64,000 nucleotides of DNA. Source: Acidobacteriota bacterium. Lineage in GTDB: Bacteria; Acidobacteriota; Vicinamibacteria; Vicinamibacterales; UBA2999. Location: assembly GCA_031364805.1 (NCBI GenBank), contig JANLWW010000060.1, positions 49,867 to 113,866 on the forward strand, written 5' to 3'. The position numbers were made by a program, and so were the translations under genes. This document shows positions 13,163-47,486 of this stretch, one piece after another. Within the stretch, counting starts at the first letter, position 1. Every line of letters starts with the position of its first letter. The notes beneath the pieces are model-generated. The model did no database searches and was not told where the DNA came from. It saw only the letters and a list, made by a program, of their open reading frames with translations.

Positions 13163-13399
13163 ATGGCGCGCGGCTGGGAGAGCAAATCGATCGAGTCGCA
13201 GCAAGACGATGCCGGTCGCAAGGCGGCGGGCGGCCCGGCATTGACGCCGGAGGAGCAGGCGCGAAATCTGCGAATAGCCGGGCTCCGGCTGGCCCTGGCT
13301 GAAACCCAGGCCCAAATGGGTGCCGCCTGCCGGCCAGCTCATCGGGAAATGCTGAAATTACGCCTTGAGGCGATCCAGGCTCAACTGAAGGACTTGTGA
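13163..13399 (+). CDS. small conserved hypothetical protein (helical)
   Basis: Starts MARGWESKSIESQQ; sits cleanly in a gap between other genes; coding-like codon usage. Confidence 0.5.
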   Translation: MARGWESKSIESQQDDAGRKAAGGPALTPEEQARNLRIAGLRLALAETQAQMGAACRPAHREMLKLRLEAIQAQLKDL

Positions 13400-13520
13400 C
13401 GAACGGGTAGATTTGCTAAGCTCATCGCCCAAGCCAAAGACAAACCAACATTCCACATCCACGTTGGATTTGACCACGATCACCCAATTGCCTTCAGCCG
13501 TCACCCGTTAGAGTTCACCA

Positions 13521-22577: not shown

Positions 22578-23831
22578 TCAAGAGCCCGGGTTGCGCGTAA
22601 TCAGCCGGACACTTCGCTGGTGGGTGAGATAAGCCGCGGCCCACTGCAGCAAGACGGACAGGCGATTGCGGAAGCCAATCAGAAACAACACATGTACGAA
22701 TAGCCACATCAGCCATCCAAGGAAACCAGATACTTGCAGGAAGCCGAAATCGGCGATCGCGTTCGCCCGGCCGATCGTGGCCATGTTACCGGGATCGAGG
22801 TAGCGAAACGGCCGGGTCTGCTCACCGCGAATCAACCGGGCGATGTTGCGAGCGGCGTGTGCGCCCTGCTGCTTGGCCACTTGCGCAACCCCCGGCAACG
22901 GCTTGCCGGTTTGGTGCAGGAAGCTCGCAAGGTCGCCGACCACGAACACGCCGGCATGGCCGGGTGCCGACAGATCGGGCTCGACGTTGATGCGCCCCGC
23001 GCGATCGAGCGCAGGTCCGAGGTCGCGCGCCACCGGCGCGGCGGCCACGCCGGCCGCCCACATGATGGTGTGTGCGTCGATGCGCTCACCGCCCATGCTC
23101 ACTGCCCCTTCCTCCACGTGTGTGACCGCCGTGCCTTCGAGTACCTCGACGCCGAGCCTGGCGAGGGCGCGCCTCGCCGACGCGCGCAAGGTTTCCGGAA
23201 ACGCGGGCAGGATCGAGGGCCCCGCCTCGATCAGCAGGATCCGCGCCGACGCGGGGTCAATCGCGTCGAACTCGGACCGCAGCGCCTGCTTCGCGATTTC
23301 GGCGAGCGCGCCGGCCATTTCCACGCCGGTCGGGCCGCCGCCGATGATCACGAACGTCAGCAGGCGGCGTTGCCGGGCGCCGTCAGGTTCACGTTCCGCC
23401 TGTTCAAACGCCAGCAGCAGCCGCCGCCGAATCGCCAGCGCATCGTCCAGGGTCTTGAGGCCGGGCGCAACCCTGCTCCATTCGTCGTGGCCAAAATAGG
23501 AATGCGTGGCGCCCGCCGCCACGACCAGGTAATCGTACGACAGGGCGTCGTGACCGTCCATCCAGACCTGGCGCGCGCTGCTGTCGATGCGTTCAACGGT
23601 ACCCAGCAGCACCCGCAAACGCGGCTGTTTGCGCAGGATCCAGCGAATCGGCGAGGCAATGTCGCCCGGCGACAGGCCGGCCGTGGCTACCTGATAAAGC
23701 AGCGGCTGGAAGACGTGATGATTGTGACGATCGATGATCGTCACCTCGCAGGCCACGTTACTGAGCGTGCGTGCCGCCGACAGCCCGCCGAAGCCGCCGC
23801 CGATGATCACCACTTGGGGTAGGCGTGCCAT
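22578..23831 (-). CDS. ndh: type II NADH:quinone oxidoreductase (NDH-2 family)
   Basis: VVIIGGGFGGL and VIIGGGPTGVEMAG dinucleotide motifs; ATG at 23831 preceded by AGGAG. Confidence 0.85.
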   Translation of the reverse strand: MARLPQVVIIGGGFGGLSAARTLSNVACEVTIIDRHNHHVFQPLLYQVATAGLSPGDIASPIRWILRKQPRLRVLLGTVERIDSSARQVWMDGHDALSYDYLVVAAGATHSYFGHDEWSRVAPGLKTLDDALAIRRRLLLAFEQAEREPDGARQRRLLTFVIIGGGPTGVEMAGALAEIAKQALRSEFDAIDPASARILLIEAGPSILPAFPETLRASARRALARLGVEVLEGTAVTHVEEGAVSMGGERIDAHTIMWAAGVAAAPVARDLGPALDRAGRINVEPDLSAPGHAGVFVVGDLASFLHQTGKPLPGVAQVAKQQGAHAARNIARLIRGEQTRPFRYLDPGNMATIGRANAIADFGFLQVSGFLGWLMWLFVHVLFLIGFRNRLSVLLQWAAAYLTHQRSVRLITRNPGS

Positions 23832-23851
23832 CTCCTCTATTCTAGGAGCGT

Positions 23852-25882
23852 ATGGCGAAGCCAGGCGCTGCTCCCACGGAATCCAACGTCCAAACCGCGT
23901 GTCCGCTCGATTGTCCCGATGCCTGCACGCTGGACGTGACACTACGGTCGGGCCGCATCACGAAGATCGATGGGTCGAAGGACAACCACATCACCAACGG
24001 CTACATCTGCGCCAAGGTGCGGACCTTTCACGAGCGCGTCTACGGCGACGACCGCCTACTCTACCCGGCAATCCGGCGCGGCGCCAAGGGGGCCGGGCAG
24101 TTCAAGCGCGTCAGCTGGGACGATGCGCTCGACTTGATCGCGACCAAGATGCGGGAAGCGAGCGCCTCCGGGGGAGCCGAAACCATCCTGCCACTTTGCT
24201 ACGGCGGCTCGAACGGCTTCATGACACAGGACTACGCGGATGCGATCCTGTTCCGCCGGCTTGGGACCTCGCGCCTGTTGCGCACGGTGTGCGCGGCGCC
24301 GACCGGCGCGGCCAACCAGGGCCTGTACGGCAAGATGGCATCGGTCAGCTACGAAGACTATCCGTCGGCCAAGATGATCATCATCTGGGGCGTGAACCCC
24401 GGCGTGTCGGGCATTCACTTGATGCCGTTCCTCAAAGACGCACGCGACAATGGCGCTTATGTCGTGGTGCTCGACCCGCGCGCCACCACGGTGGCACGGC
24501 AGGCCGACTTGCATCTGGCGGTGAGGCCCGGCACCGACCTCCCGGTGGCACTGGCCATTCATCGCTACCTCTTTGCAGAGGGCTTCGCCGACCAGGCTTT
24601 CCTCGATCAGCACACCAACGGCGCCGGCGAGCTGCGCACGAAGGCCGAACCGTGGACGTTCGAGCGGGCCGCTGACGTGAGCGGCATCGATGCCGGGCAA
24701 CTGCGCGGACTGGCCGAGCGCTATGCGAAGGCGTCGCCCGCACTGGTCAAGTGCGGATGGGGGCTTGAGCGCAACCGCAACGGCGGCAGCGCCGCGGCAG
24801 CCGTCCTCGCCCTGCCTGCAGTCGCGGGCAAGTTCGGCGTGCGCGGCGGCGGGTTCTCGATGAGCAACTCGGCATCGTGGAATATCGATCGCACGTGGCT
24901 CACCGATGCCGAACCACCCACCCGCGCCGTCAACATGAACAAGGTCGGCCGCGTGTTGACCGAGCCGGAAGGCACGCCGGTCAACATGCTGTTCGTCTAC
25001 AACTGCAATCCCGTCGCGATCCTGCCCGATCAGCGCCGCGTAATTCGCGGCTTCGAGCGCGAAGATCTCTTCACGGTAGTGTTCGATCAGGTGATGACCG
25101 ACTCGGCGATGTATGCCGACGTTGTGCTGCCGGCTACTACGTTTCTCGAACACTACGACTTCGCGCGCGGCTACGGCCCGATCACCCTGCAGTTGGGCAA
25201 GCCGGTAATCGATGCGGTCGGCGAATCGCGGCCAAACAGCGATGTCTTCCTTGAGTTGTCCCGCCGCCTGGAACTGTCAGTCGAGGGGGACCCCGAAGAC
25301 GACCTTGAATCGATGCTCGCGGTGCTCGGCCACCTGCCGCAGCAAGTTGGCAACGACTTACGCGAGAACTGGAAAGCGGCGCCGCCGCACGACGGACGTC
25401 CCGTGCAATTCGTGGACGTGTTTCCGAAAACCACTGACCGCAAGGTCGACCTGTTTCCCAAAGCGCTCGATACGCAGGCACCGATGGGCCTCTACGGCTA
25501 CCAGCCGGATCCCGGCACCTCGGAGTTTCCCCTGGCGTTGATTTCACCTGCAAGCGATCGCACCATCAGTTCAACCCTCGGCGAATTGCCTCGCCCCGAA
25601 GTGCGGTTAGAAATGAACCCGGACGATGCGTCAGCGCGCGGGGTGCAGGAGGGCGATGGGCTGCGGGTCTGGAACGGGCTCGGGGAAGTACGCATCAAGG
25701 CGCACCTCACGCACCTGATGAGGCCCGGCACCGTCGCCATGCCTAAGGGGGTGTGGCGTCGTAATACGGCGAACGGCTACACGTCGAACGCGCTCTCGCC
25801 CGACAGCTTGTCGGATTTGGGTGGTGGCGCGTGCTTCAACGATGCGCGCGTGCAGGTTGAGAAGACTGAGAAGGCTTATTGA
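23852..25882 (+). CDS. molybdopterin-dependent oxidoreductase with N-terminal 4Fe-4S motif
   Basis: CPLDCPDACTLDV cluster motif; molybdopterin oxidoreductase and C-terminal MopB barrel-like pattern; no in-frame TGA. Confidence 0.85.
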   Translation: MAKPGAAPTESNVQTACPLDCPDACTLDVTLRSGRITKIDGSKDNHITNGYICAKVRTFHERVYGDDRLLYPAIRRGAKGAGQFKRVSWDDALDLIATKMREASASGGAETILPLCYGGSNGFMTQDYADAILFRRLGTSRLLRTVCAAPTGAANQGLYGKMASVSYEDYPSAKMIIIWGVNPGVSGIHLMPFLKDARDNGAYVVVLDPRATTVARQADLHLAVRPGTDLPVALAIHRYLFAEGFADQAFLDQHTNGAGELRTKAEPWTFERAADVSGIDAGQLRGLAERYAKASPALVKCGWGLERNRNGGSAAAAVLALPAVAGKFGVRGGGFSMSNSASWNIDRTWLTDAEPPTRAVNMNKVGRVLTEPEGTPVNMLFVYNCNPVAILPDQRRVIRGFEREDLFTVVFDQVMTDSAMYADVVLPATTFLEHYDFARGYGPITLQLGKPVIDAVGESRPNSDVFLELSRRLELSVEGDPEDDLESMLAVLGHLPQQVGNDLRENWKAAPPHDGRPVQFVDVFPKTTDRKVDLFPKALDTQAPMGLYGYQPDPGTSEFPLALISPASDRTISSTLGELPRPEVRLEMNPDDASARGVQEGDGLRVWNGLGEVRIKAHLTHLMRPGTVAMPKGVWRRNTANGYTSNALSPDSLSDLGGGACFNDARVQVEKTEKAY

Positions 25883-26391: not shown

Positions 26392-27168
26392 ATGATGACC
26401 AAATCGAAGCTGGCAGTGGTCTTCGCAATCGCGCTGCCGCTGGTCGCCGGGGCCGCGATCCTAAGCCCGCGAGGTCGGGCATTCGCCAGCCACCTCGACG
26501 AAAATCGGCGCTGCTGCCAACTGACATTTGGCCGGGCATTTGTCATCGCCGTGCAGGAGACGCTGGGCAACCCGCCCTATCCGTCAGAGATCGGGCAGGA
26601 CAAGTGGGTCGCCGAAGTGATGTTCCCTGAGGTTCAGGACGGCGTCTTCCTGGACGTCGGTTCCGGTCACGGCCAGATCGGCTCCAACACCAAGGCGCTG
26701 GAGGATCGAGGCTGGACCGGCATCTGTGTTGACCCCTTCCCAACCGCCATGGAAGGACGTGACTGCCAGATGGTCAAGGAAGTCGTCTCGAGCGAGGCCG
26801 GCAAGAAGGTGTCGTTCCATACCCACGACGGGCTGGGCGGCATCGCCGATACGCTGGGGAAGTGGAAAGATGAAGCCTCAAAGGCGCCCACCGTCGAGCT
26901 GGTCACGGTGACGCTGGCCGACGTCTTGGCGCGAACCGGTGCGCCCGCATTCATTCACTTTCTCAGCCTCGACATTGAAGGCGCGGAACTCGAGGCACTG
27001 CGCGGCATCCCCTTCGACAAGTATCAATTCGGCGCGATGGCCATTGAGCACAACGAAGAGGAGCCCAAGCGCGGCGACATCATTGCGTTCCTGGCAGAAC
27101 GTGGCTACCGGCGCGTCCATACTTACAAGCAGGACGACTTCTTCGCCCCGGCGACGGCCCAGCGTTAG
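26392..27168 (+). CDS. FkbM family methyltransferase with N-terminal membrane anchor
   Basis: VFLDVGSGHGQIGSN; HFLSLDIEGAELEAL. Confidence 0.75.
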   Translation: MMTKSKLAVVFAIALPLVAGAAILSPRGRAFASHLDENRRCCQLTFGRAFVIAVQETLGNPPYPSEIGQDKWVAEVMFPEVQDGVFLDVGSGHGQIGSNTKALEDRGWTGICVDPFPTAMEGRDCQMVKEVVSSEAGKKVSFHTHDGLGGIADTLGKWKDEASKAPTVELVTVTLADVLARTGAPAFIHFLSLDIEGAELEALRGIPFDKYQFGAMAIEHNEEEPKRGDIIAFLAERGYRRVHTYKQDDFFAPATAQR

Positions 27169-27383
27169 GAATCGCTGGCCTGGCGCTGGGCGCGGCGCGC
27201 CTTGAAGACGTCGCAGTCTTCGCAGTTCCTGAGGTCAAACTCGTAGCGGACGACGGGCCAGTACATGGGATGAGCGCAGTAGACCAACTCGCCGTCAACG
27301 ATCGTGTGCGAGCCGAGGTCCTCGGGCAGATCGGCGGTGCGCCGGCCGTACCAGCAGCACCGGTGACGTTCCTCAGGCTCCAC
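27165..27383 (-). CDS. Cys-rich small hypothetical protein
   Basis: 72 codons with CCW, YCAH and CEDC motifs; fills a gap; 4-nt convergent overlap with the FkbM gene. Confidence 0.4.
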   Translation of the reverse strand: MEPEERHRCCWYGRRTADLPEDLGSHTIVDGELVYCAHPMYWPVVRYEFDLRNCEDCDVFKARRAQRQASDS

Positions 27384-27442: not shown

Positions 27443-27772
27443 ATGAGCATGTGTGGAGGACCGACGGGTCCAGCAAATGAACCGGCCACCAATAAGTCGG
27501 GCCGCAAGGTTTTTTGCGTGAAGTTCCAGAAGGACCTTCCTGGCCTCGACGCGGCGCCCTGGCCGGGTGAAATTGGCCAGCGCGTTTACGAGAACGTCTC
27601 AGTCCAGGCGTGGAAGCTCTGGGAAGAACGCCAGAAAATGATCCTCAACGAATACCGCCTGATGCCCTGGCAGAAAGAGGGCCAGGAGGTCATTCGCAAG
27701 CAGATGGAAGAATTCTTCTTTGGGGAAGGGTCGGCGCTGCCGCCGGACTTCGTGCCCCAGCAATCGAAGTAA
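27443..27772 (+). CDS. yggX: oxidative-damage protection protein (Fe2+-trafficking, YggX family)
   Basis: VFCVKFQKDLPGLDAAPWPGEIGQRVYENVS..AW..W...Q.MILNEYRL matches the YggX pattern. Confidence 0.8.
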   Translation: MSMCGGPTGPANEPATNKSGRKVFCVKFQKDLPGLDAAPWPGEIGQRVYENVSVQAWKLWEERQKMILNEYRLMPWQKEGQEVIRKQMEEFFFGEGSALPPDFVPQQSK

Positions 27773-27831: not shown

Positions 27832-29121
27832 TTATCGGTTGACGACGTCCAGCCAGGGGTCGATGGTCAGGCGCAGGCAGGCATGCGCGTTGCGCACGGC
27901 CTGCTCTGCGCCGTCGGGTGTCGGCGCATGCGCGAAGATGAACCCGAGATAGCTTGACCCCTCAGGCAACGCCAGCAAGTGCTGGTCCGCCTTCGCCGTG
28001 ATCAGTACCTCGTCCACACCCGCCACCGCCTTCGCTTCGTCCACGCCAGCCGCGCCGCGAAACAATCCGCTGCGCGGAATCGGGATCATCATCACAGCGG
28101 ACGCTTCGCTCTCGCGGAGCCACTCGCCGACCGGCTCGCCGACTGCGTGGCGTAGCAGCAACTGTTCGAGGCCAATTGACGGCTCACCCGGTTTGACGAA
28201 TCGCAAGGCTCTTGCACAGAGGCCGCCGATCGGCCGCGCCGCAACTTCCAACACGTAAACGCCCCGGCTGTTGACCCGGCACTCGGCGTGCAGGGGCCCA
28301 TGATGCAGGCCGAGCGCCTTGGCGGCGCGCTCGACGACATCCTTGATCTGCCGCTCGGTGCCGACATTGACTCGCGACGGCGTCACGTAGATGGATTCTT
28401 CGAAGAACGGACCCTCCAGTGGATCCGGCTTGTCGAAGATGGCCAGCGTGTGGAACACGCCGTGTTCGAGAATACCCTCAAGCGCATACTCCGCACCGGG
28501 GATATAAGACTCGATCTGGATGACGTCCGACCCGGGATCGCGCAGCTCCTTGATGTCGTTCGACGCGAGCAGCCTCTGCACCCGGCCAAACGCCGTCACA
28601 AAGCTCAACGCATCGTCAGCGCGAATGACACCGCGGCTCGCGGAAAGCACGGTTGGTTTGACAACGGCCGGGAACGTCACCTTCGATAACAGCGTCGAGG
28701 GATCAATCGTCGTCGGCACCGCGAAATAGTCAGGCACCAGCAGTCCTGCGGTCTTCAGGCGTTCGCGCGAGAGGCGCTTGTCGCGGGCGATTCCAGCCGC
28801 CTCCGGCGAATGTCCGGGCAATCCGAGCTGCCGCGTAATGTCTGCGGCCATCACGCCTGGCCGGTCGCCGACGACCAGCACGCCCGACACGGGGCGCGCG
28901 TCCAGCGCCTTCAGCACCGCATCAACCGAGCGCCGCTCCTCGTGAAAGCGGACCGGAATCGCGCCGTCGCGCCAGGGGTCGGCCAGCTGATCGCAGCGGT
29001 CGGTCGCGTACACGACCTCGATGCCGAGGCTCGCGGCCGCTTCCGCGAACATGCGGGTCTGGTAGCCGGTGGTCGTGGCGAGCAGGAGTACTCGCCGGGT
29101 TTGCCCGGAGCGAGGCGTCAC
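27832..29121 (-). CDS. ATP-grasp domain protein (carboxylate-amine ligase-like)
   Basis: PreATP-grasp Rossmann-like N-domain followed by ATP-grasp pattern FPAVVKP....SRGV...; GTG start at 29121 preceded by GGGAGA. Confidence 0.8.
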   Translation of the reverse strand: MTPRSGQTRRVLLLATTTGYQTRMFAEAAASLGIEVVYATDRCDQLADPWRDGAIPVRFHEERRSVDAVLKALDARPVSGVLVVGDRPGVMAADITRQLGLPGHSPEAAGIARDKRLSRERLKTAGLLVPDYFAVPTTIDPSTLLSKVTFPAVVKPTVLSASRGVIRADDALSFVTAFGRVQRLLASNDIKELRDPGSDVIQIESYIPGAEYALEGILEHGVFHTLAIFDKPDPLEGPFFEESIYVTPSRVNVGTERQIKDVVERAAKALGLHHGPLHAECRVNSRGVYVLEVAARPIGGLCARALRFVKPGEPSIGLEQLLLRHAVGEPVGEWLRESEASAVMMIPIPRSGLFRGAAGVDEAKAVAGVDEVLITAKADQHLLALPEGSSYLGFIFAHAPTPDGAEQAVRNAHACLRLTIDPWLDVVNR

Positions 29122-29203
29122 GCGAGTCTCCCGAGCGGGATATCGAGTCGAAGGGCGTGGCCTGAGCGAGGCATTACTCGAGTCGCCCGACCGAGTCGAA
29201 GGG

Positions 29204-30574
29204 TCATAGCAGAGCCAACTGCTCTGCGGTTGGTTCCGCTCAACAGTACCAGGGCTCGTTCATGTAAGGGATCGACGTGCGTGGATCCAGTGATGTGGTG
29301 ATCTCGCGATCTCGTGGTTTGGCCAGATTGCGAATCGCGTCAAAGGTCTCGTGGCGTGGTGCACTGATGTGGGCACCAGCGATAGCCATGGCGCTGGCTT
29401 GCAGTTCATCAACGCGGGAATCGGGATGTCGCCACGGAAACGTCAGCGAGGTGCGATCGAAGGGGCCGACCAGCGCCTGGATGTCTGGCAACTCAAGCAG
29501 TCGCGATTGCCAGGTCACCAGCAACCGAATGCCCCACTGCACAGGGGCCACATTGGCGACCAGGCCCAGCTCGGCGACGACGTCAAGCAAATCGCGGTAG
29601 CTCTCGACTGTCGTCCACGGCGTGAAGGCGACGAATGTCGGCACCAGCGTCAGCCCGGCGTCGCGACACAACCTGGCGGCCGCATAGAAATCGGCGCGCG
29701 TGTGTCCCTTCTCGAGTTTTGCCAACACCTCGTCGTCCACCGATTCGACCGCGCTGGTCACGAACAGGCAACCGGTGCTGGCCAGTAGTGGCAGCAGTTC
29801 ACGCTGCTGAAGCAGGTGTTCGACCTTGATGATGGCGTCGTAGGTCAACGCGGGGAACTCGGCATGCAGCGCTTCGATCAGTTTGCGCGCGTGCGTGGGA
29901 CCATTCAGGAAGTCCGGATCACCAAAGGTGATGTGGGTCGCACCCAGCGCGACCTGCGCGCGAACGTCTGCAAGCACCACAGCAACCGGGATCACGCGGA
30001 ACTGACCGTCGTAGACCGGAACGATCGGGCAATGCCGGCAACGATGCTTGCAGCCGCGCGTCGCCTCGGTGGCGCCGACTATCTTTTGAGAACCATCGGG
30101 CATCTGCAGGCTGGCGTACCGATCAAGGGCCGGTAGTCCAGTCCGGTCCGGTGGAATGAAGGCCAAGCGGGCCAAAGGTGCCAGATGTGCCTGGGGTGCC
30201 AAGGTGCCGGTGCTCAGCGCGCTGGCTGCGTTCACCATGTCCTGTTCGCACTCGGGACCGAGCACGATCGAGACGCCGTTCTCGCGCAGCAGTGCGTCGT
30301 TCAGGGGCGCGTACAAGCCGTAGGCGGCGATCGTGATCGCCGGATTGGCGGCTCGCAGGCGCTGCACGACGGGAATCGCCAGGCGCGTCGCCGTGTGCAT
30401 GGGCAGGTAGATCGCGGCCAACTGCGTGGCGGCGACCACGTCGGCGGATAGTTTTTCGCGCGACAAGTCGACGCACGTCACGTCGAACCCGGCCCGCTTC
30501 AACCACGCCGCCGGCGAAGCCAGGCCGAAGGGCTGGCGGCCAAGGTCGTAGGTACTCAACAGAACGACGCGCAC
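29204..30574 (-). CDS. B12-binding radical SAM protein, probable selenoprotein with C-terminal C-U-A-E-P tail (UGA at 29242-29240 recoded)
   Basis: B12-binding N-domain; CKHRCRHC (CxxxCxxC). The in-frame TGA is followed by GCG GAA CCA... up to TGA at 29206-29204, and a SECIS-like hairpin lies 12 nt after the UGA. The core CDS 29240..30574 is certain; the extension is inferred. Confidence 0.7.
29209..29227 (-). promoter_or_regulatory. candidate bacterial SECIS hairpin
   Basis: GCAGAGC-AGUUG-GCUCUGC, perfect 7-bp stem with 5-nt loop containing G and U; the stem starts 12 nt after the UGA. Confidence 0.6.
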
Positions 30575-30604: not shown

Positions 30605-32104
30605 CTACTTCGGCGTCTGGCCATGCTGCGGCAGCAGCTTGCGAATTGACGGCACCAGCGCGAGCAGGATGAGGCCGGCGACGATGGCAAACGCCGCGAC
30701 GGTGCCGAACAAATCCGGAAGCGCGAACGATTCGTAGAGGCCAGAGACACGACCGCCGATGAAATTGCCCACCGACGTGGCCAGGAACCAGACGCCCATC
30801 ATGAGGCCGGCAATGCGCGCCGGTGCCAGGGTGGTCATGGCGCTCAGGCCCACCGGGCTCAATGCCAGCTCGCCAATCGTGTGGAGCAGATACGTGGCTG
30901 TCAGCCACATCGGGCTGACCAGGGCGCCCTGCTCTGCCATGCGGGCGGGGATCACGAGGATCAGGAAGCCGGCGCCGACGAAGATCAAGCCAAACGCGAA
31001 CTTGGTCGGGCTGGTCGGTTCCTTCCCGGTCGATGCGAGCTTGATCCACAACCAGGCGATGATCGGCGCAAACGCGAAGATGAATAACGAGTTCATCGAC
31101 TGGAACCAACTGCTGGGATAGGCCATGCCGGCCACTTCATTGCGCGTGCTGCGGTCGGCAAACAGGTTGAGCGTGGATCCCGCCTGCTCGAACACCGACC
31201 AGAACAGCGACGCGGCGAGAAACAGGACACCGATGACGTAGAGGCGCTTCTTCTCGTCGGGCGTCCACCCGCCAGAGAACATCAGCCAACCGAAGAAGCC
31301 GACCACCACCAGCAACAGGAACACGCCCGCGGCATCGGAGACCTGCGTGGCCGTCACCTGGATGACGCCAAGGTAGGCGGCCAGGCCGGCCACGATGACC
31401 AGCGCCGCGGCACCGCCGACCCAGGTCTGCACCTGGCGCTTCCACTGGGCTGCAATCGCCGGTGTTGGAGCGGGAGCAGGGGCGAGGCCGGCATCACCCA
31501 GGTTGGCACTGCCCATTACATACTGGATCACACCAATCAGCATGCCGACGCCGGCGGCGGCGAATCCCAGGTGCCAGTTCACTTGCTGGCCGAGGTACCC
31601 GCACACCAGCGGCGCCAGGAATGCGCCGAGGTTGATCCCCATGTAGAAGATCGAGAAGCCGGCATCGCGGCGAATATCGGTCGCTCCGTATAGCTTGCCG
31701 ACGATCACGCTGACATTGCCCTTGAGCAGGCCGGTGCCAATCACGATCAGGAACAAGCCGAAGTAAAACATCGCCAGCGACGGCACCGCCATGCTGAAGT
31801 GCCCGGCGGCGATGATGATGCCACCATAGAGCACCGCGCGCCGCGGGCCAATTAGCCGGTCGGCAATCCAGCCACCCGGCAGCGTCGCCAGGTAGACCAT
31901 CGAGGTATAGAGGCCGTAGATGGCACCGCCCTGGGCGGCATCAAAGCCCAATCCGCCCGCCGACAGCGGCGCGGTCATGTACAGCAGCAGCAGCGCGCGC
32001 ATGCCGTAATAGCTGAACCGTTCCCACATCTCTGTGAAGAACAACGTTGACAGACCACGGGGGTGGCCGAAGAACGCGCGATCCTGAGCTGCAGGTGTGG
32101 CCAT
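30605..32104 (-). CDS. POT/PTR2 family di/tripeptide:proton symporter
   Basis: FGHPRGLSTLFFTEMWERFSYYGMRALLLLYM signature; about 14 TM helices. Confidence 0.85.
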   Translation of the reverse strand: MATPAAQDRAFFGHPRGLSTLFFTEMWERFSYYGMRALLLLYMTAPLSAGGLGFDAAQGGAIYGLYTSMVYLATLPGGWIADRLIGPRRAVLYGGIIIAAGHFSMAVPSLAMFYFGLFLIVIGTGLLKGNVSVIVGKLYGATDIRRDAGFSIFYMGINLGAFLAPLVCGYLGQQVNWHLGFAAAGVGMLIGVIQYVMGSANLGDAGLAPAPAPTPAIAAQWKRQVQTWVGGAAALVIVAGLAAYLGVIQVTATQVSDAAGVFLLLVVVGFFGWLMFSGGWTPDEKKRLYVIGVLFLAASLFWSVFEQAGSTLNLFADRSTRNEVAGMAYPSSWFQSMNSLFIFAFAPIIAWLWIKLASTGKEPTSPTKFAFGLIFVGAGFLILVIPARMAEQGALVSPMWLTATYLLHTIGELALSPVGLSAMTTLAPARIAGLMMGVWFLATSVGNFIGGRVSGLYESFALPDLFGTVAAFAIVAGLILLALVPSIRKLLPQHGQTPK

Positions 32105-32150: not shown

Positions 32151-34289
32151 TCAAAACCGCTTACGGCTCTCGAGGTTGGCCTCGATGTCGGCCTTCGTCC
32201 GCCACATCGGCCGCATCTGCTTGCGCGAGGCCAGCGGCAGCTGGTCGTCGATGTGCTTGGAGCCCTTCTTCGACCAGTTGCCGTAGTTGAGCAGCACTTC
32301 GGCGCGCTGCGGCACCGAGTACTCGATCACCGCGTAGAACGTGTCGCCCTGTACCGCCTCGACCTTGCCCTCCTTGAACGGGCTGACGCCGATGGTGCGG
32401 ATGGCGCCGAGCTGCGACGGCGCGCCGTTGCCGGGTAGGTCGGTGTTGCCGCGGCGAAAGCGCATCACGTCGCCCCACTTCACCGACAGCGACCCGTATT
32501 CCTTCTCGACCTCACCGGCCACCTGGTCGAGCGCCGCCATCGCCCGGGACGGGTCCTTGAAGCCGCGCGGAGTGTCCAACGGACGCGCGTCGTCGGTGGG
32601 CACCTTGAAGCCGCCGATGTCACCGAACGCCGGTCCGGCGGCCGTCATGAACTTGTAGAAGAGCAGCATGCCGTCGCTGTCCACTTCGGCTTGACGGTCC
32701 CACTTGGCCAGCACGTCGGCGGCGCGCCTGGCACGTGCGGTGCCGCGGGCCTTGGCAGTGGCTACGAGGTCGTCCACGAACTGGTCCGCCGTCTCGACGC
32801 GGGTCGAGAGCTTCCACGACTTGATGTTCTCGAAGGTCATCTTCTCGGGCGCCGTGCTGAGAATACGGATGCCGCGCTGGGCGCGCTGCGTGATGCCCTG
32901 CGGCGCAGCGAAACCGGCCGCGAACTTCGTGGCATCGAGCGTGGCCGGATACGTGGACGTCCACGGCATGTCGTTCGAGTTCTGCACCCAGCCCTGCGGC
33001 GGGTCGATGACTTTCGGAATCTGGTCGTAGGGCACGATTTCGCGGCCGATCAGATCCGACTTGTCGCCGGGCACGACGCCCTGCCAGAAGCGGTAGTCGC
33101 CGGTGGCGTGCTTCCACAGCGTCGCGTTGTAGACGTAGGCGATGTGGCCGTCGCGGTCGGCGTAGGCCGTGTGAAAGAGCGGGAGCTGCTGCATGCGCAT
33201 CGCCGCCTCCCACTCCGTGAAGTTCTTCGCCAGGCCCATTCGCCAGAACTGTTCGAACATCTTCGGGCGGTCCAGGGCGGCCACGCGCATCGCGATCGGC
33301 GCGCCGCCACGTTCCGCGACGACCGGCCCGTGCTCGCTGCGCCGCACGGTCAGCGTCTCTTCCCTGGTCGTGCCATCGGCCTGCCGCACCTTGATGGTCT
33401 CGCTATGGGTGTCAAATTGCTTGACCTGGCCGTCGAGCAGGTAGCCGCCGTCCTTCAGGACCAGCCGGTAGAGGTCTGATTGCGAGGGGTTGTTGGTGGT
33501 CTGCGTCCAGCCCACATACTCGGTAAAGCACTGTCGCAGCACCGGGAAGCCGACCCATACCGCGCCGTAGGAGGTGACGCCGGGAGCGGTCAGCTGCACC
33601 TCGAAGTAGGTGTGGATGTCGCCCCACTGCAGGTGCGAGTTGCTCATCAGCAGCGCCTTACCGGTAGCCGAGCGGGCCGGAGCGATGGCCCATTCGTTCG
33701 AGCCGTGCACGTCCTGTTCCCAGCGCGCCAGCCGGCTTTCGAGCCGGCGCGGGCTCACGACCCAGTCGTAGTGGATGACGCGCAGGCCATGCGCGTAAAC
33801 GTCTTCGACCGTGATCGGCAGCACGCCCTTGGCCTCGGCGCTGATCTCGGCTTGGTGCTCGTCGGCCCACGCGTTCAGGCCCCTGGCAAAGGCGGCGATC
33901 AGCGGCGCGAATTCCTGGCTCTGCCCCGCCGCCCACTGTTTCGCCGTCGCCGGCAGGCCGTTGGTGCGCACCCAGCGGTCGGAATCGAGGTACTGCTCGC
34001 CGTAGAACTCCGCGCCGCGGCCTCGCGCCTGGGCGTAGAGGCGAACCAGCAGTTCGCTGTGGGCCTCCATTTGGGCGTAGCCGTACGCCTGGAACAGGCT
34101 CGGATGGTCGGGCGCGAAGATATGCGGGACGCCGTAAGTGTCCCAGAGGATCTCCGTGCCGGTGGCCGCGGCCTTCTGCGCTTCCAGCGCCGGAGCCGGA
34201 TTGCAGGCGCCCAGCACCAGGGAGGCAACGACGACGGCCGACAAGCACGACGAGCGAACGAGACGGGCCGAGAACGATAAACGGGTCAT
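32151..34289 (-). CDS. penicillin acylase family Ntn-hydrolase (possible acyl-homoserine-lactone acylase)
   Basis: Signal peptide; HGSNEWAIAP nucleophile-Ser junction; family length about 710 aa. Confidence 0.8.
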   Translation of the reverse strand: MTRLSFSARLVRSSCLSAVVVASLVLGACNPAPALEAQKAAATGTEILWDTYGVPHIFAPDHPSLFQAYGYAQMEAHSELLVRLYAQARGRGAEFYGEQYLDSDRWVRTNGLPATAKQWAAGQSQEFAPLIAAFARGLNAWADEHQAEISAEAKGVLPITVEDVYAHGLRVIHYDWVVSPRRLESRLARWEQDVHGSNEWAIAPARSATGKALLMSNSHLQWGDIHTYFEVQLTAPGVTSYGAVWVGFPVLRQCFTEYVGWTQTTNNPSQSDLYRLVLKDGGYLLDGQVKQFDTHSETIKVRQADGTTREETLTVRRSEHGPVVAERGGAPIAMRVAALDRPKMFEQFWRMGLAKNFTEWEAAMRMQQLPLFHTAYADRDGHIAYVYNATLWKHATGDYRFWQGVVPGDKSDLIGREIVPYDQIPKVIDPPQGWVQNSNDMPWTSTYPATLDATKFAAGFAAPQGITQRAQRGIRILSTAPEKMTFENIKSWKLSTRVETADQFVDDLVATAKARGTARARRAADVLAKWDRQAEVDSDGMLLFYKFMTAAGPAFGDIGGFKVPTDDARPLDTPRGFKDPSRAMAALDQVAGEVEKEYGSLSVKWGDVMRFRRGNTDLPGNGAPSQLGAIRTIGVSPFKEGKVEAVQGDTFYAVIEYSVPQRAEVLLNYGNWSKKGSKHIDDQLPLASRKQMRPMWRTKADIEANLESRKRF

Positions 34290-35174: not shown

Positions 35175-36605
35175 CTATTTCCGATAGTCCAGAGCGGGCT
35201 TTCGGTCCGCCAGCCTGGTCGAGTAAATGAAGTTCGGTCCGCGTCGCTTGTCGAATTCCTCCCGCGCCTTGGCGATGTGCGTGGGGTCGGAGAACAGATC
35301 GATCGCCATCAGGCTCATCGACTTGGCAGCCACCATCATGCCCTTGGCGCCAATCGACATGCCGCCGGCCGCCACCGCTTGCCAGCTGTGGGCCGGTGTA
35401 CCTGGAACCCACGTCGCCGCAGTCAGCTGCACCGTCGGCACGCGCCAGCTGATGTCGCCGAGGTCGGTGGAGGCGCTGCCGATGCCGGCCTCCGGGGCGA
35501 ACACCGAGTTGGCACTGTCGATCGGCGGCAATTCGCCCTCGAGCGACTTGCGAATGCCTTCCGCGAACTGGAGCTCAGCCGGCGTGTATTCATAGCCGCC
35601 GACCTTGCGCAGGTTCTCTTGCATCAGGCCAACGAGGTAACTATTCGGCAACACATTCCATACCGCGCCGGTCAGCTCCAGTTCCATGGTCGTGCCGGTC
35701 CCGAGCGCGGCTCCGCGCGCCGCGTTGGTAATGCGCTCCCAGATGCCTTCGAGCACCCGCATATCGTTGTGACGCGCGTAGTAGTACGCCTCCGCGAAGT
35801 CGGGAACGACATTCGGCGCGCGGCCGCCGTTGGTGATCACGTAGTGGATGCGTGAGTCGGAGGGCACGTGCTCGCGCATCAGGTTCACCATGGCGTTCAT
35901 CGCCTCGACGCCGTCGAGCGCCGAGCGGCCGCGATCGGGCGCGGTGGAGGCATGCGCCGACAGACCGCGGAACCGGAACTTGCCGGTGATATTGGCGAGC
36001 GTGCTCGACGCGCTCGACGCATTGCGATCACCAGGATGCATCGTCACCACCGCATCGACATCGTCAAAGAGGCCGGCGCGGAGCATGTAGACCTTGCCGG
36101 CGCCGCCTTCTTCGGCCGGTGTGCCATAGAAGCGCAAGGTGCCGGACCGCTGGTTGGCGATCAGCCACTCTTTCACGGCGATGGCCGACGCAGTGGCGGC
36201 GGTGCCAAACAGGTGGTGCCCGCAGCCGTGTCCCGCGCCTTCGGGCACCAGCGCGCGACGATCCGCTTCGGCCGCCTGCGACAGGCCGGGCAAGGCGTCG
36301 AACTCGCCGATGATTCCGATCACCGGCTTGCCCGATCCCCACGTGGCGGTGAACGCGGTGGGAATTTCTGCGACGCCGGCGTTGACGGTGAAGCCGGCCG
36401 CCTTCAGTTGCTCCTGCAACAACGCGCTGCTCCTGGTTTCCTGGTAGCCGACCTCGGCGAACGACCAGATCTTCTGCGCGACGTCGCGATAGACAGCCGC
36501 CTTCTGATCGATCGATGCCATCACCGCGTTGGCATCCATCGTCTGGGCCGAGCCGGACGAGGCGCCGAGCAGGAGGGCAGCAACTACCGTCGCAATCCGC
36601 TTCAT
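35175..36605 (-). CDS. M20 family amidohydrolase (AbgB-like), secreted
   Basis: Signal peptide; GEFDALPG, GHGCGHHL metal-binding pattern; paralog of the genes at 44203 and 45824. Confidence 0.8.
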   Translation of the reverse strand: MKRIATVVAALLLGASSGSAQTMDANAVMASIDQKAAVYRDVAQKIWSFAEVGYQETRSSALLQEQLKAAGFTVNAGVAEIPTAFTATWGSGKPVIGIIGEFDALPGLSQAAEADRRALVPEGAGHGCGHHLFGTAATASAIAVKEWLIANQRSGTLRFYGTPAEEGGAGKVYMLRAGLFDDVDAVVTMHPGDRNASSASSTLANITGKFRFRGLSAHASTAPDRGRSALDGVEAMNAMVNLMREHVPSDSRIHYVITNGGRAPNVVPDFAEAYYYARHNDMRVLEGIWERITNAARGAALGTGTTMELELTGAVWNVLPNSYLVGLMQENLRKVGGYEYTPAELQFAEGIRKSLEGELPPIDSANSVFAPEAGIGSASTDLGDISWRVPTVQLTAATWVPGTPAHSWQAVAAGGMSIGAKGMMVAAKSMSLMAIDLFSDPTHIAKAREEFDKRRGPNFIYSTRLADRKPALDYRK

Positions 36606-42790: not shown

Positions 42791-42907
42791 CACCGATGTA
42801 GAACAGCCACAGATTAGGCGCCGAACAGACACAGACTAAGACAGGTCACTTCTTGAATCAGTGCTTAATCGGTGTCGAATCTGTGGCTGTCTTCAGGTAA
42901 TCTGCGG
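42791..42907 (+). repeat. intergenic element with interleaved inverted repeats and CAGATT-type units
   Basis: CACCGAT (42791-97) pairs with ATCGGTG (42868-74). ACAGCCACAGATT (42803-15) pairs with AATCTGTGGCTGT (42878-90). ACAGAC x2 at 42825-36. AATCTGCGG at 42899-907. Confidence 0.85.
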
Positions 42908-42910
42908 CCT

Positions 42911-44197
42911 ATGAACGCACCAGTATCCCGTCGCGACTTCGCCCGCCTGTTTGCTGTCGGTGGCTCGGCTGCGCTGTTCGCCGACCCGGTGTGGGCGAAG
43001 ACGGCGCCACAGGTGCCGGCGTTCAATCCCGGCACGGCGGGCTCGGGTGAAGCGTTCTGGAAGTCGGTGCGCGCGCAGTTTGTGATGCCGGCCGACCTCG
43101 GCGTGCTGAACGCCGCCAACCTCTGCCCCGCCTCGCGGCCCGTGCTCGAAGCGCTCCGGCGCGAAACCGACAGCGTCGACCGCGACCCGTCGGGCCAGAA
43201 TCGTGCGCGCCTCTCCGGCGAGAAAGAAAACACGCGCACTGCGCTCGCGACGTTCCTGCGGGTCACGCCGGAAGAAATTGTGATCACGCGCAACACCAGC
43301 GAGGCCAACAACATGGTCTCGAGCGGCCTCGACCTCAAGGCCGGCGATGAAGTGATCGTCTTTCACGACAACCACCCCAGCAACCTGGTGGCGTGGAACG
43401 AGAAAGCCAAGCGCTTCGGCTTCACCGTCGTCGAGATCGCCCAGAAGAACCCGCACCCCGGGATGGAGTACTACCTGGATGCCTACAAGAAGGCGATCAC
43501 CCCGAAGACCAAGATCCTGACATTCACGCATCTCACCAGCTCGGTCGGCGACCTGTTTCCGGCCAAGGAACTGTGCGCCATAGCGAAGGAACATGGCGTC
43601 ATGTCGCTCGTGGACGGCGCGCAGACGTTCGGCTTGCTCGACGTTAATCTGGCCGACATCTCGCCAGACTTCTACACCGGCAGCTCGCACAAGTGGCCGT
43701 GCGGCGCGCGCGAATGCGGCGTGCTCTTCATCAACGCGCGGACCCACACGAAGATCTGGCCCTCAATCTACAGCGCTTATCCAGGAGCGGTCGGCATCGC
43801 GAAAACGTTCGAAAGCTTCGGCCAGCGCGACGAGGCGACGATGATCGCGCTGCGCGAAGCGCTGGAGTTCCAGGCCAGGGTCGGCCGGGCCGCCATCGAG
43901 CAGCGCTCACGGGCGCTGGCGAATCAGCTGATCGCCGGGCTCTCGAAGCTGCCAGAGGTAAAGGTGTGGACGTCGCCCAATCCGGCGTTGAACGCCGCGG
44001 TCGTCTCGTTCCAGCCCGGCTCGCTGAACGCGGCGACGCTAGGTCAAGTGCTGTATGAGAAGGACAAGATCGGCACCGCAGGACGCGGCCCCAACGATCG
44101 CGGCGGGCTGCGCGCCTCCCCGCACTTCTACAACAGCCCCGAAGAGATCGATCGCCTCGTCGGGGCTGTTGCCAAGTACTTGAAGTCGGGAGTCTAG
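42911..44197 (+). CDS. class V-fold PLP-dependent aminotransferase/epimerase-like enzyme with Tat signal
   Basis: MNAPVSRRDFARLFAVGGSAALFA twin-arginine signal; SSHKW PLP-lysine motif. Confidence 0.8.
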   Translation: MNAPVSRRDFARLFAVGGSAALFADPVWAKTAPQVPAFNPGTAGSGEAFWKSVRAQFVMPADLGVLNAANLCPASRPVLEALRRETDSVDRDPSGQNRARLSGEKENTRTALATFLRVTPEEIVITRNTSEANNMVSSGLDLKAGDEVIVFHDNHPSNLVAWNEKAKRFGFTVVEIAQKNPHPGMEYYLDAYKKAITPKTKILTFTHLTSSVGDLFPAKELCAIAKEHGVMSLVDGAQTFGLLDVNLADISPDFYTGSSHKWPCGARECGVLFINARTHTKIWPSIYSAYPGAVGIAKTFESFGQRDEATMIALREALEFQARVGRAAIEQRSRALANQLIAGLSKLPEVKVWTSPNPALNAAVVSFQPGSLNAATLGQVLYEKDKIGTAGRGPNDRGGLRASPHFYNSPEEIDRLVGAVAKYLKSGV

Positions 44198-44202: not shown

Positions 44203-45795
44203 CTATTTGCGCAGAGTGGGATAGGTGATCCCGAGCTGCTCGAGGTAGCTCCCGAACTTGGTCGGGTCGTAGTAGAACTTCCGCATCTGCTCGCGGTACC
44301 TCTCGAGAATCGCCTTGTTCAGGTGCGTCGGCGCCGGCGTGTCCTTGGCGATGAACGGGATGTACTTCACATCCTTCGTCTGCACATCGTTGAAGTACGC
44401 CCAGGCTCCCTTCACCAGTTCCGGCTTGGTCAGCAGGTCGAGCACCGTCATCGCCTGCGCCTTGGCGCCGGCGACCACGCCCTTGTGAGCGATCGGCGTC
44501 GCGCTGGCAATGCCGCTCGACCAGTTGTGGCCGGGCAGTCCGGGAATGTTGGCCGGGTAGCTCAGCGTGATGGTCGGCATGTTCCACGAGATGTCGCCGA
44601 TGTCGTCCGAGCCGCCGCCGTTGTTGTCTTCGAGCGCCACCGGCTTGCCGAGTTCGCCCAGCTTCACGGCCAGGCCGTTCTGCGTGGCGTTACCAAGTTC
44701 CTTCTGCAGGCCCTTGGCGAGCATCTGGTCCTGTTCACTCCAGGTCGGCAGGCCCACGGCCTGGATGTTGGCGTACATCGTCTCTGCCACCACCTTGTTC
44801 ATGTGGCGAGGATAGGCGGTGCCGAGAATGCGCGAGGTGACCTTGGTGTTGGTCATCAGCGCGGCGCCCTCCGCCATCTTGTTGCCAATTTCCACCAGCT
44901 CCTTGATGTGCGGCTGGTCGATTTCTCGGAAGTAGAACCAGATGCTGGCATTGCGCGGCACCACGTTGGGCTGGTCGCCGCCGTTGGTGATGATCGAGTG
45001 CGAGCGCTGCGACAGGCGCAGGTGCTCGCGGCGATAGTTCCAGCCCACACTCATCAGCTCGACCGCGTCGAGCGCCGAGCGGCCGCGCCACGGCGCGCCG
45101 GCGCTATGCGCCGTCTCGCCTTCGAATGTGTATTCGATCGATACCAGGCCGGTGCCGCCCTGCTGGCCCCACGAGGTACTGAGGTTGCCGCCAACGTGCG
45201 TGAACAGGTTGACATCCACGTCCTTGAACATGCCGTCGCGGACGAACCACGCCTTCGAGGCGACCAGTTCTTCGGCGACGCCCGGCCACAGCATGATCGT
45301 GCCGGGCAGCTTGTCGCGCTCCATGATTCGCTTCACCGCAATGGCCGCGATGATATTGAGCGGCATGCCGGTGTTGTGGCCTTCGCCGTGCCCCGGCGCG
45401 CCCTCGATGATCGGGTCGTGGTACGCCACGCCCGGCTTCTGCGACGACTGCGGAATACCGTCGATGTCAGAACCGAGCGCGATCACCGGCTTGCCCGAGC
45501 CATAGGTCGCCACCCAGGCGGTCGGCATGCCCGACTGCCCGCGCGTGATCTTGAAGCCGAACTTCTCGAGCTGCGCCGTCAGGTACTTCGAGGTCTCGAC
45601 TTCCTGCATGCCGAGCTCGCCGAAACTGAAGACGGAATCGACCATCTCCTGCGCCAGCTTGGCCATCTCGTCAACGCCCTTGACCGCATCCTTCTTCTGC
45701 TCGGACAACTTAGCGCTGTCCTGAGCCGACGCGGTCGTGCCGAGCGCGGCGAGCAGCGCCGCAATTGCCACCAAACGAACAGACTTCATCAACAT
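44203..45795 (-). CDS. M20 family amidohydrolase, secreted (tandem paralog 1)
   Basis: Signal peptide MKSVRLVAIAALLAALGTTASA; GSDIDGIPQ, GHGEGHNTG; near-identical blocks shared with the gene at 45824. Confidence 0.8.
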   Translation of the reverse strand: MLMKSVRLVAIAALLAALGTTASAQDSAKLSEQKKDAVKGVDEMAKLAQEMVDSVFSFGELGMQEVETSKYLTAQLEKFGFKITRGQSGMPTAWVATYGSGKPVIALGSDIDGIPQSSQKPGVAYHDPIIEGAPGHGEGHNTGMPLNIIAAIAVKRIMERDKLPGTIMLWPGVAEELVASKAWFVRDGMFKDVDVNLFTHVGGNLSTSWGQQGGTGLVSIEYTFEGETAHSAGAPWRGRSALDAVELMSVGWNYRREHLRLSQRSHSIITNGGDQPNVVPRNASIWFYFREIDQPHIKELVEIGNKMAEGAALMTNTKVTSRILGTAYPRHMNKVVAETMYANIQAVGLPTWSEQDQMLAKGLQKELGNATQNGLAVKLGELGKPVALEDNNGGGSDDIGDISWNMPTITLSYPANIPGLPGHNWSSGIASATPIAHKGVVAGAKAQAMTVLDLLTKPELVKGAWAYFNDVQTKDVKYIPFIAKDTPAPTHLNKAILERYREQMRKFYYDPTKFGSYLEQLGITYPTLRK

Positions 45796-45823
45796 TCCTC
45801 CACGGCGCCCTTGAAAGGACGCC

Positions 45824-47431: not shown

Positions 47432-47486
47432 CACAACTCCTCCACCGCGCCTGCCCAGAACGGTCAATTCTAGTGTGTTCCCGCGA

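Follow-up and report, generated by a model that had tools for sequence, protein, structure and literature searches.

A predicted selenoprotein of the CUAEP-tail radical SAM family in Acidobacteriota, with a conserved SECIS-like hairpin and a neighbouring amino-acid ligase gene

The radical SAM gene, its in-frame UGA and its family

We analysed a 64-kb stretch of DNA from an Acidobacteriota bacterium of the order Vicinamibacterales (GenBank assembly GCA_031364805.1, contig JANLWW010000060.1, positions 49,867 to 113,866), hereafter called the window, in whose numbering positions are given. The subject is a minus-strand gene for a radical S-adenosylmethionine (SAM) protein, in which an in-frame TGA is followed by a short continuation of the reading frame and a hairpin resembling a selenocysteine insertion sequence (SECIS) (Table 1). 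The conventional open reading frame (ORF), 30574-29243 on the minus strand, consists of 444 codons, and its translation ends in I-P-Y-M-N-E-P-W-Y-C. The position of the GTG start agrees with the MRVVL start of the homologues in the alignment. On the 3' side of the TGA, the same frame reads GCG GAA CCA ACC GCA GAG CAG TTG GCT CTG CTA. An initial annotation, made from the letters of the window, had proposed that the gene reads through its TGA into a Cys-Sec-Ala-Glu-Pro tail, where Sec denotes selenocysteine; on re-reading the minus strand, its coordinates, frame, tail sequence and hairpin position were every one correct.

Table 1. Principal features of the locus in window coordinates
Feature	Position	Strand	Remarks
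Full-length gene of the predicted CUAEP-tail radical SAM (seleno)protein	29204..30574	-	456 codons plus stop; GTG start at 30574; UGA is codon 445
UGA predicted to be read as selenocysteine, residue 445	29240..29242	-	Directly after Cys444 (TGT, 29245-29243)
Eleven-codon tail, AEPTAEQLALL	29207..29239	-	Follows the predicted Sec codon; A-E-P invariant across the family
Predicted true stop codon, TGA	29204..29206	-	2 nt past the stem; stop at the same position in 54/54 TGA forms
SECIS-like hairpin	29209..29227	-	7-bp stem, 29227-29221 (GCAGAGC) with 29215-29209 (GCUCUGC); loop AGUUG, 29220-29216
CxxxCxxC motif (C175, C179, C182)	30029..30052	-	[4Fe-4S] cluster ligands of the radical SAM core
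ATP-grasp L-amino-acid ligase gene	27832..29121	-	82 nt downstream of the radical SAM gene; ATP-grasp_4 and LAL_C2 domains; probable operon partner
POT/PTR2 proton-dependent di/tripeptide transporter gene	30605..32104	-	30 nt upstream; TIGR00924 452.9 bits (cutoff 130); Pfam PTR2
Penicillin-amidase-family gene	32151..34289	-	Same strand as the radical SAM gene
YggX-like Fe(2+)-trafficking protein gene	27443..27772	+	Pfam Iron_traffic 111.9 bits; convergent with the ligase gene
Molybdopterin oxidoreductase gene, cytoplasmic type	23852..25882	+	Fe4S4, Molybdopterin and Molydop_binding domains
NDH-2-like flavoprotein gene	22578..23942	-	Divergent; adjoins the molybdopterin oxidoreductase gene

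The family name that the initial annotation had given, CUAEP/CCAEP-tail radical SAM (seleno)protein, proved to be real. With U replaced by C in the query, the read-through protein scored 614.9 bits (E = 8.8e-185) against the NCBIfam equivalog model NF040546.1 (rSAM_CUAEP), whose curated cutoff is 500, and the alignment reaches through the tail (residues 3-454 of 456, model positions 1-467 of 468). Besides this score, the protein carries the C-[U/C]-A-E-P motif and the CxxxCxxC radical SAM core that characterise members; at the protein level no difference from NF040546 was found, the motif and the alternation between selenocysteine and cysteine being the same. The second-best NCBIfam family was ArsL (NF040542, RCCLKC-tail) with 259.8 bits, under its cutoff of 450. 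Among Pfam domains, Radical_SAM (PF04055) matched residues 171-311 with 54 bits, and B12-binding (PF02310) gave a sub-threshold 16.5 bits (cutoff 32.1).

The gene thus adds a new and apparently unnamed member to a selenoprotein family whose curation by NCBI predates this work, and the core selenoprotein claim is therefore not novel. A preprint by Haft mentions the family as an uncharacterised CU-motif selenoprotein and describes CU motifs as rare, occurring in mercury-handling or organometal-bond-forming proteins such as HgcA, MerT-like and SAO proteins (10.1101/2022.07.06.499078). It was the sole paper found to name the family in our literature search, which found no functional study of CUAEP/CCAEP proteins and nothing on selenocysteine use in Vicinamibacterales or in Thermomicrobium roseum. 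Added here are the conserved, covarying hairpin, the proportions of selenocysteine and cysteine forms, the ligase and transporter neighbourhood in Acidobacteriota, the truncation of the T. roseum protein in RefSeq, and a functional hypothesis built on ArsL and the gene module. When one genome per GTDB species was scanned, relatives were detected in at least 581 species-level genomes. Among proteins clustered at 50% identity, 566 clusters match with E <= 1e-30, probably with some related families among them.

Selenocysteine and cysteine forms of the tail and the downstream hairpin

Comparison of the tail region covered the best 80 loci of the at least 581 relatives, nearly all from metagenome-assembled genomes (MAGs) of Acidobacteriota and mostly of Vicinamibacterales. 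The window together with 78 informative loci provided 79 orthologous sites. The codon after ...W[YF]C, residue 445 in the window protein, is TGA in 54 of them and TGC or TGT in the other 25, with A-E-P next, as anticipated if selenocysteine and cysteine occupy the same column. In all 54 TGA forms the in-frame tail is exactly 11 codons long, reads A-E-P-x-x-E/G-Q-V/L-A-L-L/V/I and ends in a stop codon, beyond which similarity among the loci vanishes. The cysteine forms read C-C-A-E-P, with a tail of the same length in 13 loci and a shorter one in 12. Analysis of the best 150 representatives at 50% identity revealed 38 proteins ending at W[YF]C and 38 reading CCAEP, the rest being fragments. Selenocysteine forms thus outnumber cysteine forms by about 2:1 in close relatives, and the two are about equally frequent (1:1) in diverse representatives. 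In a collection of 5.8 billion proteins, the best 120 matches (69-100% identity) end exactly at ...EPWYC without exception (120/120), because gene callers stop at the TGA; together with a T. roseum coding sequence in RefSeq that stops at its TGA, this bears out the expectation that standard gene callers truncate the protein.

In bacteria, SelB recognises SECIS elements like that of Escherichia coli fdhF by their placement after the UGA and their apical loop bearing G and U. In the window, the stem begins 12 nt past the UGA and the first base of the loop is the 20th nucleotide after it; the hairpin is the centroid structure of the local fold (-12.6 kcal/mol). Like fdhF-type elements, it lies in the coding region right after the UGA, with a spacer of about 11-12 nt and with G and U exposed in the loop, and hairpins of this family are present only where the codon is UGA, as is the case for SECIS. 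It differs from them in its short stem of 6-7 bp, in having no bulged U, and in sitting within the last 11 codons with the stop 2 nt past the stem. A permissive Rfam search over the hairpin returned chance-level matches only, and no curated RNA family covers the element. A reading of the hairpin as an intrinsic terminator was rejected: no U-run follows it, and no terminator-like site was found there.

The hairpin by itself is weak evidence. Perfect 7-bp hairpins occur about once per 1000 positions in the window, and the chance that one starts 8-16 nt after a given stop is about 0.9%, which amounts to roughly 0.5 genes per window. The radical SAM gene is nevertheless the sole one of 19 TGA-terminated genes there that combines such a hairpin with a Cys codon before the TGA. 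The comparative data are of another order. In a gap-free alignment of 47 distinct TGA-form sequences, the seven-pair helix shows standard pairs in 91.2% of its cells, compared with a mean of 84.2% in 500 shuffles, and double-sided changes affect four pairs and 21 cells, compared with a shuffled mean of 6.0; for both measures 0/500 shuffles were as high. When the helix register was slid by 1-3 columns, pairing fell to 37-55%. The compensatory changes couple a non-synonymous site in the 5' arm (the second position of an Ala/Glu/Gly codon) to the 3' arm, where the partner is the synonymous third position of a Leu codon. Within the stem and loop, third positions are frozen or covarying, with columns 21 and 24 being invariant G and column 30 (T/C) tracking column 20. 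In the 12-nt spacer, variation falls almost entirely on third positions (columns 6, 9, 12, and 15), and positions 1-2 of the A-E-P codons are fixed. Wobble in the spacer combined with a frozen or covarying stem indicates that the stretch is both translated and constrained as RNA. The initial annotation called motif and hairpin together hard to explain by chance; the hairpin alone carries little weight, and the conservation among relatives of the 11-codon tail and the paired stem goes far beyond chance.

The hairpin separates the two forms of the gene. All six inner pairs are formed in 45 of the 54 TGA forms and five of the six in 8 more, and they are all formed in none of the 25 cysteine forms; the loop consensus is A-G-(G/U)-U-N, with the A, G and U positions invariant. 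A covariance model gave a single hit in the window, at 29204-29242 on the minus strand (61.9 bits, E = 1.8e-18), and recovered all six TGA loci held out of training (54-63 bits). Among cysteine forms it recovered one, a Bryobacterales locus (L063), at 27 bits. This locus, which reads C-C-A-E-P-T-E-E-Q-L-A-H-V at its positions 11339-11377, keeps five of the six inner hairpin pairs and looks like a recent replacement of selenocysteine by cysteine with a decaying SECIS.

Distant TGA members were examined in T. roseum and in two marine metagenome loci (L087 and L089). The megaplasmid NC_011961.1 of T. roseum DSM 5159, which is in culture and completely sequenced, encodes a family member at 41.6% identity (L085, 8935-10440). 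Its coding sequence as annotated in RefSeq, TRD_RS12835, ends in ...T-E-S-W-F-C before a TGA. Beyond the TGA the frame reads A-E-P-L-E-D-P-S-G-P-V... until a stop is reached 23 codons on, and the hairpin GGACCC-GUC-GGGUCC begins at +14. From this sequence, the RefSeq entry appears to be the truncated annotation of a selenoprotein. The marine loci are of low G+C and share 35-38% identity; L087 reads A-E-P-T-K-S-Q-L-T-F-N after its UGA and has the hairpin AAGAGUC-AGUU-GACUUUU at +12, and L089 reads A-E-P-I-D-E-S-V and has GAGUCA-GUU-UGACUC at +15. The stem sequences of these distant hairpins differ, their location is equal (+12 to +15), and every loop contains GU. The T. roseum gene is flanked by genes for a pyridoxal-phosphate-dependent aminotransferase and a major facilitator superfamily transporter, with a GNAT acetyltransferase gene nearby and no ligase gene.

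Judged by the usual comparative criteria, namely homologues with cysteine, conservation of the frame downstream and a SECIS confined to UGA forms, the window UGA is almost certainly decoded as selenocysteine through a bacterial SECIS element, and the alternation of TGA with cysteine codons and the covarying hairpin support the earlier proposal of a probable selenoprotein. SelB carrying Sec-tRNA(Sec) would bind the hairpin while the ribosome sits on the UGA, and selenocysteine would be inserted instead of termination; the ribosome would then melt the hairpin, read eleven more codons and stop at 29206-29204.

Several results tell against this decoding. The window hairpin, taken by itself, is thermodynamically unexceptional (z = -1.25 against shuffles of a 61-nt fold). 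None of selA, selB, selD and tRNA-Sec was found in the 64-kb window, where NCBIfam scans covered 30 proteins (20 further ORFs at least about 280 aa long and ten genes around the locus) and where ARAGORN and Rfam detected only a tRNA-Leu. ARAGORN likewise found no tRNA-Sec within 10 kb of the 80 related loci. A SufS-like, selenocysteine-lyase-like protein at 42872-44197 was considered as part of the machinery and rejected, since it scores far below all cutoffs and is not insertion machinery. As background only, the phylum does have the trait, with four selenoproteins credited to Acidobacteria in a survey of 2006 (PMC1794560). That no selenocysteine machinery was seen in the window, that the ligase gene lies closely downstream and that gene callers and RefSeq end the protein at the TGA are points for a different account, in which the TGA is an ordinary stop, the tail is untranslated, and the hairpin is a regulatory RNA for the downstream ligase gene, acting in processing, stability or translational coupling. 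We regard this account as highly improbable, since it would leave the comparative evidence without an explanation: 25 orthologues carry TGC or TGT with the frame continuing as C-A-E-P; the third-position wobble of the spacer and the fixed A-E-P codons mark translated sequence; the hairpin is lost exactly in the cysteine forms though the ligase gene is still downstream; T. roseum keeps the TGA, the A-E-P and the hairpin without a downstream ligase gene; and the curated family model extends through the tail.

The linked ligase gene, the transporter and the wider neighbourhood

The gene downstream of the radical SAM gene encodes an L-amino-acid ligase with matches to PF13535 (99.3 bits), PF18603 (52 bits), and PF18130 (31.2 bits). 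Its best relatives of solved structure are BL00235 (3VOT, E = 9e-35) and BacD (E ~1e-12), and BL00235 makes Met-Gly and Met-Met (PMC6920838). A ligase gene follows the radical SAM gene in 71/80 loci, which corresponds to 71/74 of those with enough downstream sequence, and in 68 of the 71 it is less than 500 nt away on the same strand. The nine loci without it comprise six cut by contig ends and three, from Acidobacteriota, that truly lack the gene. The pairing occurs with selenocysteine and cysteine forms alike and persists in a Terriglobia locus (L077) with an otherwise different neighbourhood and, rearranged, in a Pyrinomonadaceae MAG (L054). In the latter, the ligase is part of a 728-aa ORF (11420-13606, minus strand) that runs convergently to the radical SAM gene and has a sulfotransferase domain in its N-terminal part; this ORF could be a real fusion or an over-extended reading frame. 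A terminator scan found none between the radical SAM gene and the ligase gene in the window. In the spacer between them (29092-29203), a stretch of about 46 nt is imperfectly repeated in direct orientation at 56-nt spacing, with 76% identity, and the exact 12-mer CGAGTCGAAGGG is present in two copies.

The POT transporter gene lies near the radical SAM gene in 38/80 loci, directly adjacent in 32, in co-directional or divergent orientation. Gene order across these genomes suggests that the radical SAM gene and the ligase gene form a functionally linked pair and that the transporter is more weakly linked to it; no other neighbour is taken as linked. The combination recalls antimetabolite pathways in which an L-amino-acid ligase makes a dipeptide, such as that of BacD (bacilysin), and the ligase BL00235, in its ATP-grasp_4 and LAL_C2 domains and in the adjacent transporter gene, and differs from them in the low identity of the ligases and in the POT family of the transporter, whose members are usually peptide importers.

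Other genes of the block recur among the 80 loci as well. The YggX-like gene stands just past the ligase gene in 56 loci; its product might support the Fe-S enzyme in an aerobe, or its position might only reflect conserved synteny. The molybdopterin oxidoreductase gene was detected in 40 loci and the NDH-2-like flavoprotein gene in 25, both 2-5 kb from the radical SAM gene; the oxidoreductase scores far below every NCBIfam cutoff, the best being Fdh-alpha with 249 bits vs 666. An FkbM methyltransferase gene is present in 8/80 loci. Weighing against a reading of the block as a pathway, housekeeping genes (LigD phosphoesterase, CofD-like, IspG, and LemA) are conserved in it to a similar degree, so that much of the neighbourhood conservation is due to common descent. 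For this reason the oxidoreductase, NDH-2-like and YggX-like genes were set aside as pathway members, as was the rarely present FkbM gene.

Further observations concern the surroundings of the locus. A 72-residue Cys-rich ORF (HRCCWYGR...YCAHP...NCEDCD) without a Pfam match lies at 27165-27383 on the minus strand, and a 72-aa gene occupies the same place in two other loci (L081 and L083). The window is rich in amide and peptide hydrolases, namely a penicillin-amidase-family protein, three M20-type amidohydrolases, an oligopeptidase-B-like protein and an amidase (genes at 32151-34289, 35175-36605, 44203-45873, 45824-47467, 47487-49607, and 51427-53061). Six contigs labelled as MAGs of Cyanobacteria, Acidimicrobiia or Bifidobacteriaceae (L081, L009, L014, L016, L042, and L043) carry an Acidobacteriota-type gene block with 60-70% protein identity, comprising the POT transporter, radical SAM, ligase and molybdopterin oxidoreductase genes where the contig reaches, the oxidoreductase being absent from L042. 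Their bin labels are probably wrong.

Protein anatomy, the role of the tail and the likely chemistry

An alignment of 61 diverse members and one ArsL-family protein resolves the protein into four parts: an N-terminal domain, the CxxxCxxC core, a conserved W-x-H-P-D near residue 381, and a variable linker followed by the conserved tail. The core residues C175, C179, and C182 are kept in 60/60 diverse members covering the column and in the ArsL-family protein. C269 was considered as a universal third ligand and rejected, as it is conserved in 42/61 members and replaced by Val in the ArsL-type protein. The linker (about residues 391-436 in the window protein) is poorly conserved and 37-72 residues long across members. 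The tail consensus is P-x-L-[TS]-E-x-W-[YF]-C-[U/C]-A-E-P-T-x-x-Q, in which E440, W442, and C444 are invariant among the 61 members, and [U/C]445, A446, E447, and P448 are invariant or nearly so.

The AlphaFold model of residues 1-444 (mean predicted local distance difference test score [pLDDT] of 75.8, predicted TM-score [pTM] of 0.69) consists of a Rossmann-like N-terminal domain, a radical SAM barrel, and coil with pLDDT <50 at 421-433 and 441-444; residues 421-444, next to and within the tail motif, are of low predicted confidence. The nearest solved structures are, in order, AprD4 (6FD2, TM-score 0.68), the cobalamin enzymes OxsB, TsrM, and MgmA, and then MiaB and RimO; no ArsL structure was present in the PDB search. 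AprD4 is a radical SAM 1,2-diol dehydratase that acts on an aminoglycoside substrate through a 5'-deoxyadenosyl radical and has a B12-like domain that is not known to carry cobalamin. The window protein resembles it in the whole fold, a B12-like Rossmann domain joined to a radical SAM barrel (sequence E = 5e-12), and differs in sequence (identity of about 19-20%) and in its tail, AprD4 having no Cys/Sec tail. The label of a B12-binding radical SAM protein in the initial annotation is not to be taken as established: the Pfam score is sub-threshold, and the structural neighbours include both AprD4, as top hit, and the cobalamin enzymes.

The closest characterised homologue is ArsL. The window protein shares 34% identity over 406 collinear residues (E = 1e-74) with the RCCLKC-tail, ArsL-family protein of a Bacillus cereus plasmid, which ends in ...KRCCLKC about 20 residues past the shared core. 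In both, a Rossmann-like N-terminal domain precedes the CxxxCxxC radical SAM core, and a short motif rich in cysteine closes the chain. The window protein differs in scoring well under the ArsL cutoff, in its C-U-A-E-P tail without a CCxxC, and in carrying this tail on the long family linker, whereas the RCCLKC motif of ArsL follows soon after the core. According to the ArsL papers, the enzyme splits SAM into methylthioadenosine and a 3-amino-3-carboxypropyl (ACP) radical, and a 2026 preprint proposed that bound arsenite attacks an organometallic Fe-ACP intermediate. Three tail cysteines of ArsL bind As(III), and deletion or mutation of the tail abolishes the product while SAM cleavage is retained. 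The in vitro biosynthesis of arsinothricin by ArsL and ArsM was described with cobalamin not mentioned. The Bacillus gene itself lies in an island of plasmid pAH820_272 of B. cereus AH820 (NC_011777.1; L086, 1-13212) with genes for a MIP channel, a GTP-binding protein, a GNAT protein, ArsR, ACR3, ArsC, ArsD, and ArsA. An ATP-grasp gene about 3.3 kb upstream of the RCCLKC-tail gene shares 21% identity (E = 2e-15) with the window ligase.

By homology to ArsL, we favour a tail that holds the substrate. The conserved E-x-W-[YF]-C-[U/C]-A-E-P at the end of the variable linker is probably a mobile arm that would swing the thiolate/selenolate pair of Cys and Sec to the radical SAM active site. More tentatively, and at rather less than even odds, the pair may hold a soft heteroatom, a metalloid or chalcogen, with a non-protein amino acid as the product; by analogy with ArsL, the SAM-derived aminocarboxypropyl group would be attached to the acceptor atom held on Cys-Sec, a role that a selenolate would suit very well as a soft ligand or nucleophile. 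There is about an even chance that, in Acidobacteriota, this amino acid would be joined to a second one by the probably co-transcribed ligase and the dipeptide moved by the POT transporter. That step comes from gene order; also counted in its favour are the methionine dipeptides made by the ligase relative and the fact that methionine is itself an aminocarboxypropyl-X compound.

A pair of Cys or Sec residues near a C-terminus can also serve in redox chemistry, as in the C-terminal cysteine pair of ribonucleotide reductase and the Gly-Cys-Sec-Gly (GCUG) redox tail of mammalian thioredoxin reductase. The main rival for the function is accordingly a redox-active selenenylsulfide on a mobile tail, which would shuttle reducing equivalents to a conventional 5'-deoxyadenosyl-radical enzyme and hold no substrate atom. 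The vicinal Cys and Sec do follow a variable linker close to the C-terminus, where the model is of low confidence; two conserved soft ligands fit a redox pair better than three-coordinate As(III); AprD4, the top structural neighbour, is a conventional 5'-deoxyadenosyl-radical dehydratase; and no metalloid-resistance genes are nearby. We nevertheless consider a redox shuttle unlikely: ArsL uses a Cys-rich tail at the same end for substrate binding, the invariant A-E-P, Glu and Trp around the pair suggest a docking motif over a simple dithiol, and no thioredoxin-like or reductase partner is conserved adjacent to the gene. The initial annotation had likened the tail to that of thioredoxin reductase, and the two do share a vicinal Cys-Sec near the C-terminus on a flexible extension. 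The eukaryotic flavoprotein, with its penultimate pair and a SECIS in the 3' untranslated region, shows no homology to the window protein, in which 11 residues follow the Sec; the likeness thus stands as one reading only, and the homology to ArsL favours substrate holding. Still less probable is that the tail binds a toxic metal or metalloid (Hg, As) for organometallic detoxification or methylation by a cobalamin-dependent class B mechanism. The link drawn by Haft between rare CU motifs and mercury handling or organometal bonds (10.1101/2022.07.06.499078) points that way, as do the Rossmann-like N-terminal fold, as in B12-binding domains, and the cobalamin enzymes among the structural neighbours. 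The B12-binding score, however, lies at about half its cutoff, the top neighbour AprD4 is not known to bind cobalamin, the ArsL/ArsM papers on arsinothricin make no mention of it, the window contains no mer or ars genes, and the close association of the gene with those of an L-amino-acid ligase and a peptide transporter speaks for chemistry on amino acids or dipeptides.

The substrate-holding, ArsL-like reading has its own difficulties, which count against it together with the common descent of the neighbourhood. The tail offers two soft ligands (Cys and Sec or Cys, one often selenium) compared with three cysteines in ArsL. No arsenic-resistance genes lie near the window gene, in contrast to the ars island around the Bacillus RCCLKC-tail gene. 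The ligase is not a universal partner, being absent beside the gene in T. roseum and in the three Acidobacteriota loci, and the tail role, chemistry and pathway steps rest on analogy at 34% identity. Taken as a whole, a selenoprotein with a substrate-holding tail, ArsL-like chemistry and a dipeptide pathway is the best explanation of the locus, with a probability of roughly 0.75.

Kinship with ArsL, a selenolate on a flexible tail and a ligase and transporter module suggest a selenium-dependent enzyme that forms a C-heteroatom bond and feeds a dipeptide. Carried further, to a point that we regard as speculative and on balance doubtful, CUAEP enzymes might be a second ArsL-like non-canonical branch, in which the Cys-Sec arm would present a soft atom (not As, or As in a new setting) to receive the 3-amino-3-carboxypropyl group of SAM with formation of a C-heteroatom bond, and the resulting amino acid would be ligated into a dipeptide antimetabolite or metallophore-like compound in the abundant soil Acidobacteriota of the order Vicinamibacterales and moved by the POT transporter. 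If true, this would represent a previously unseen class of organo-element natural product with selenium-dependent synthesis, and the hypothesis is directly testable in the culturable T. roseum or with the natural Cys-Cys variants in E. coli. The family is a large one, common in the Acidobacteriota of soil, and public collections hold it almost wholly as truncated products, which therefore lack the one residue and the motif that define the family and probably its chemistry.

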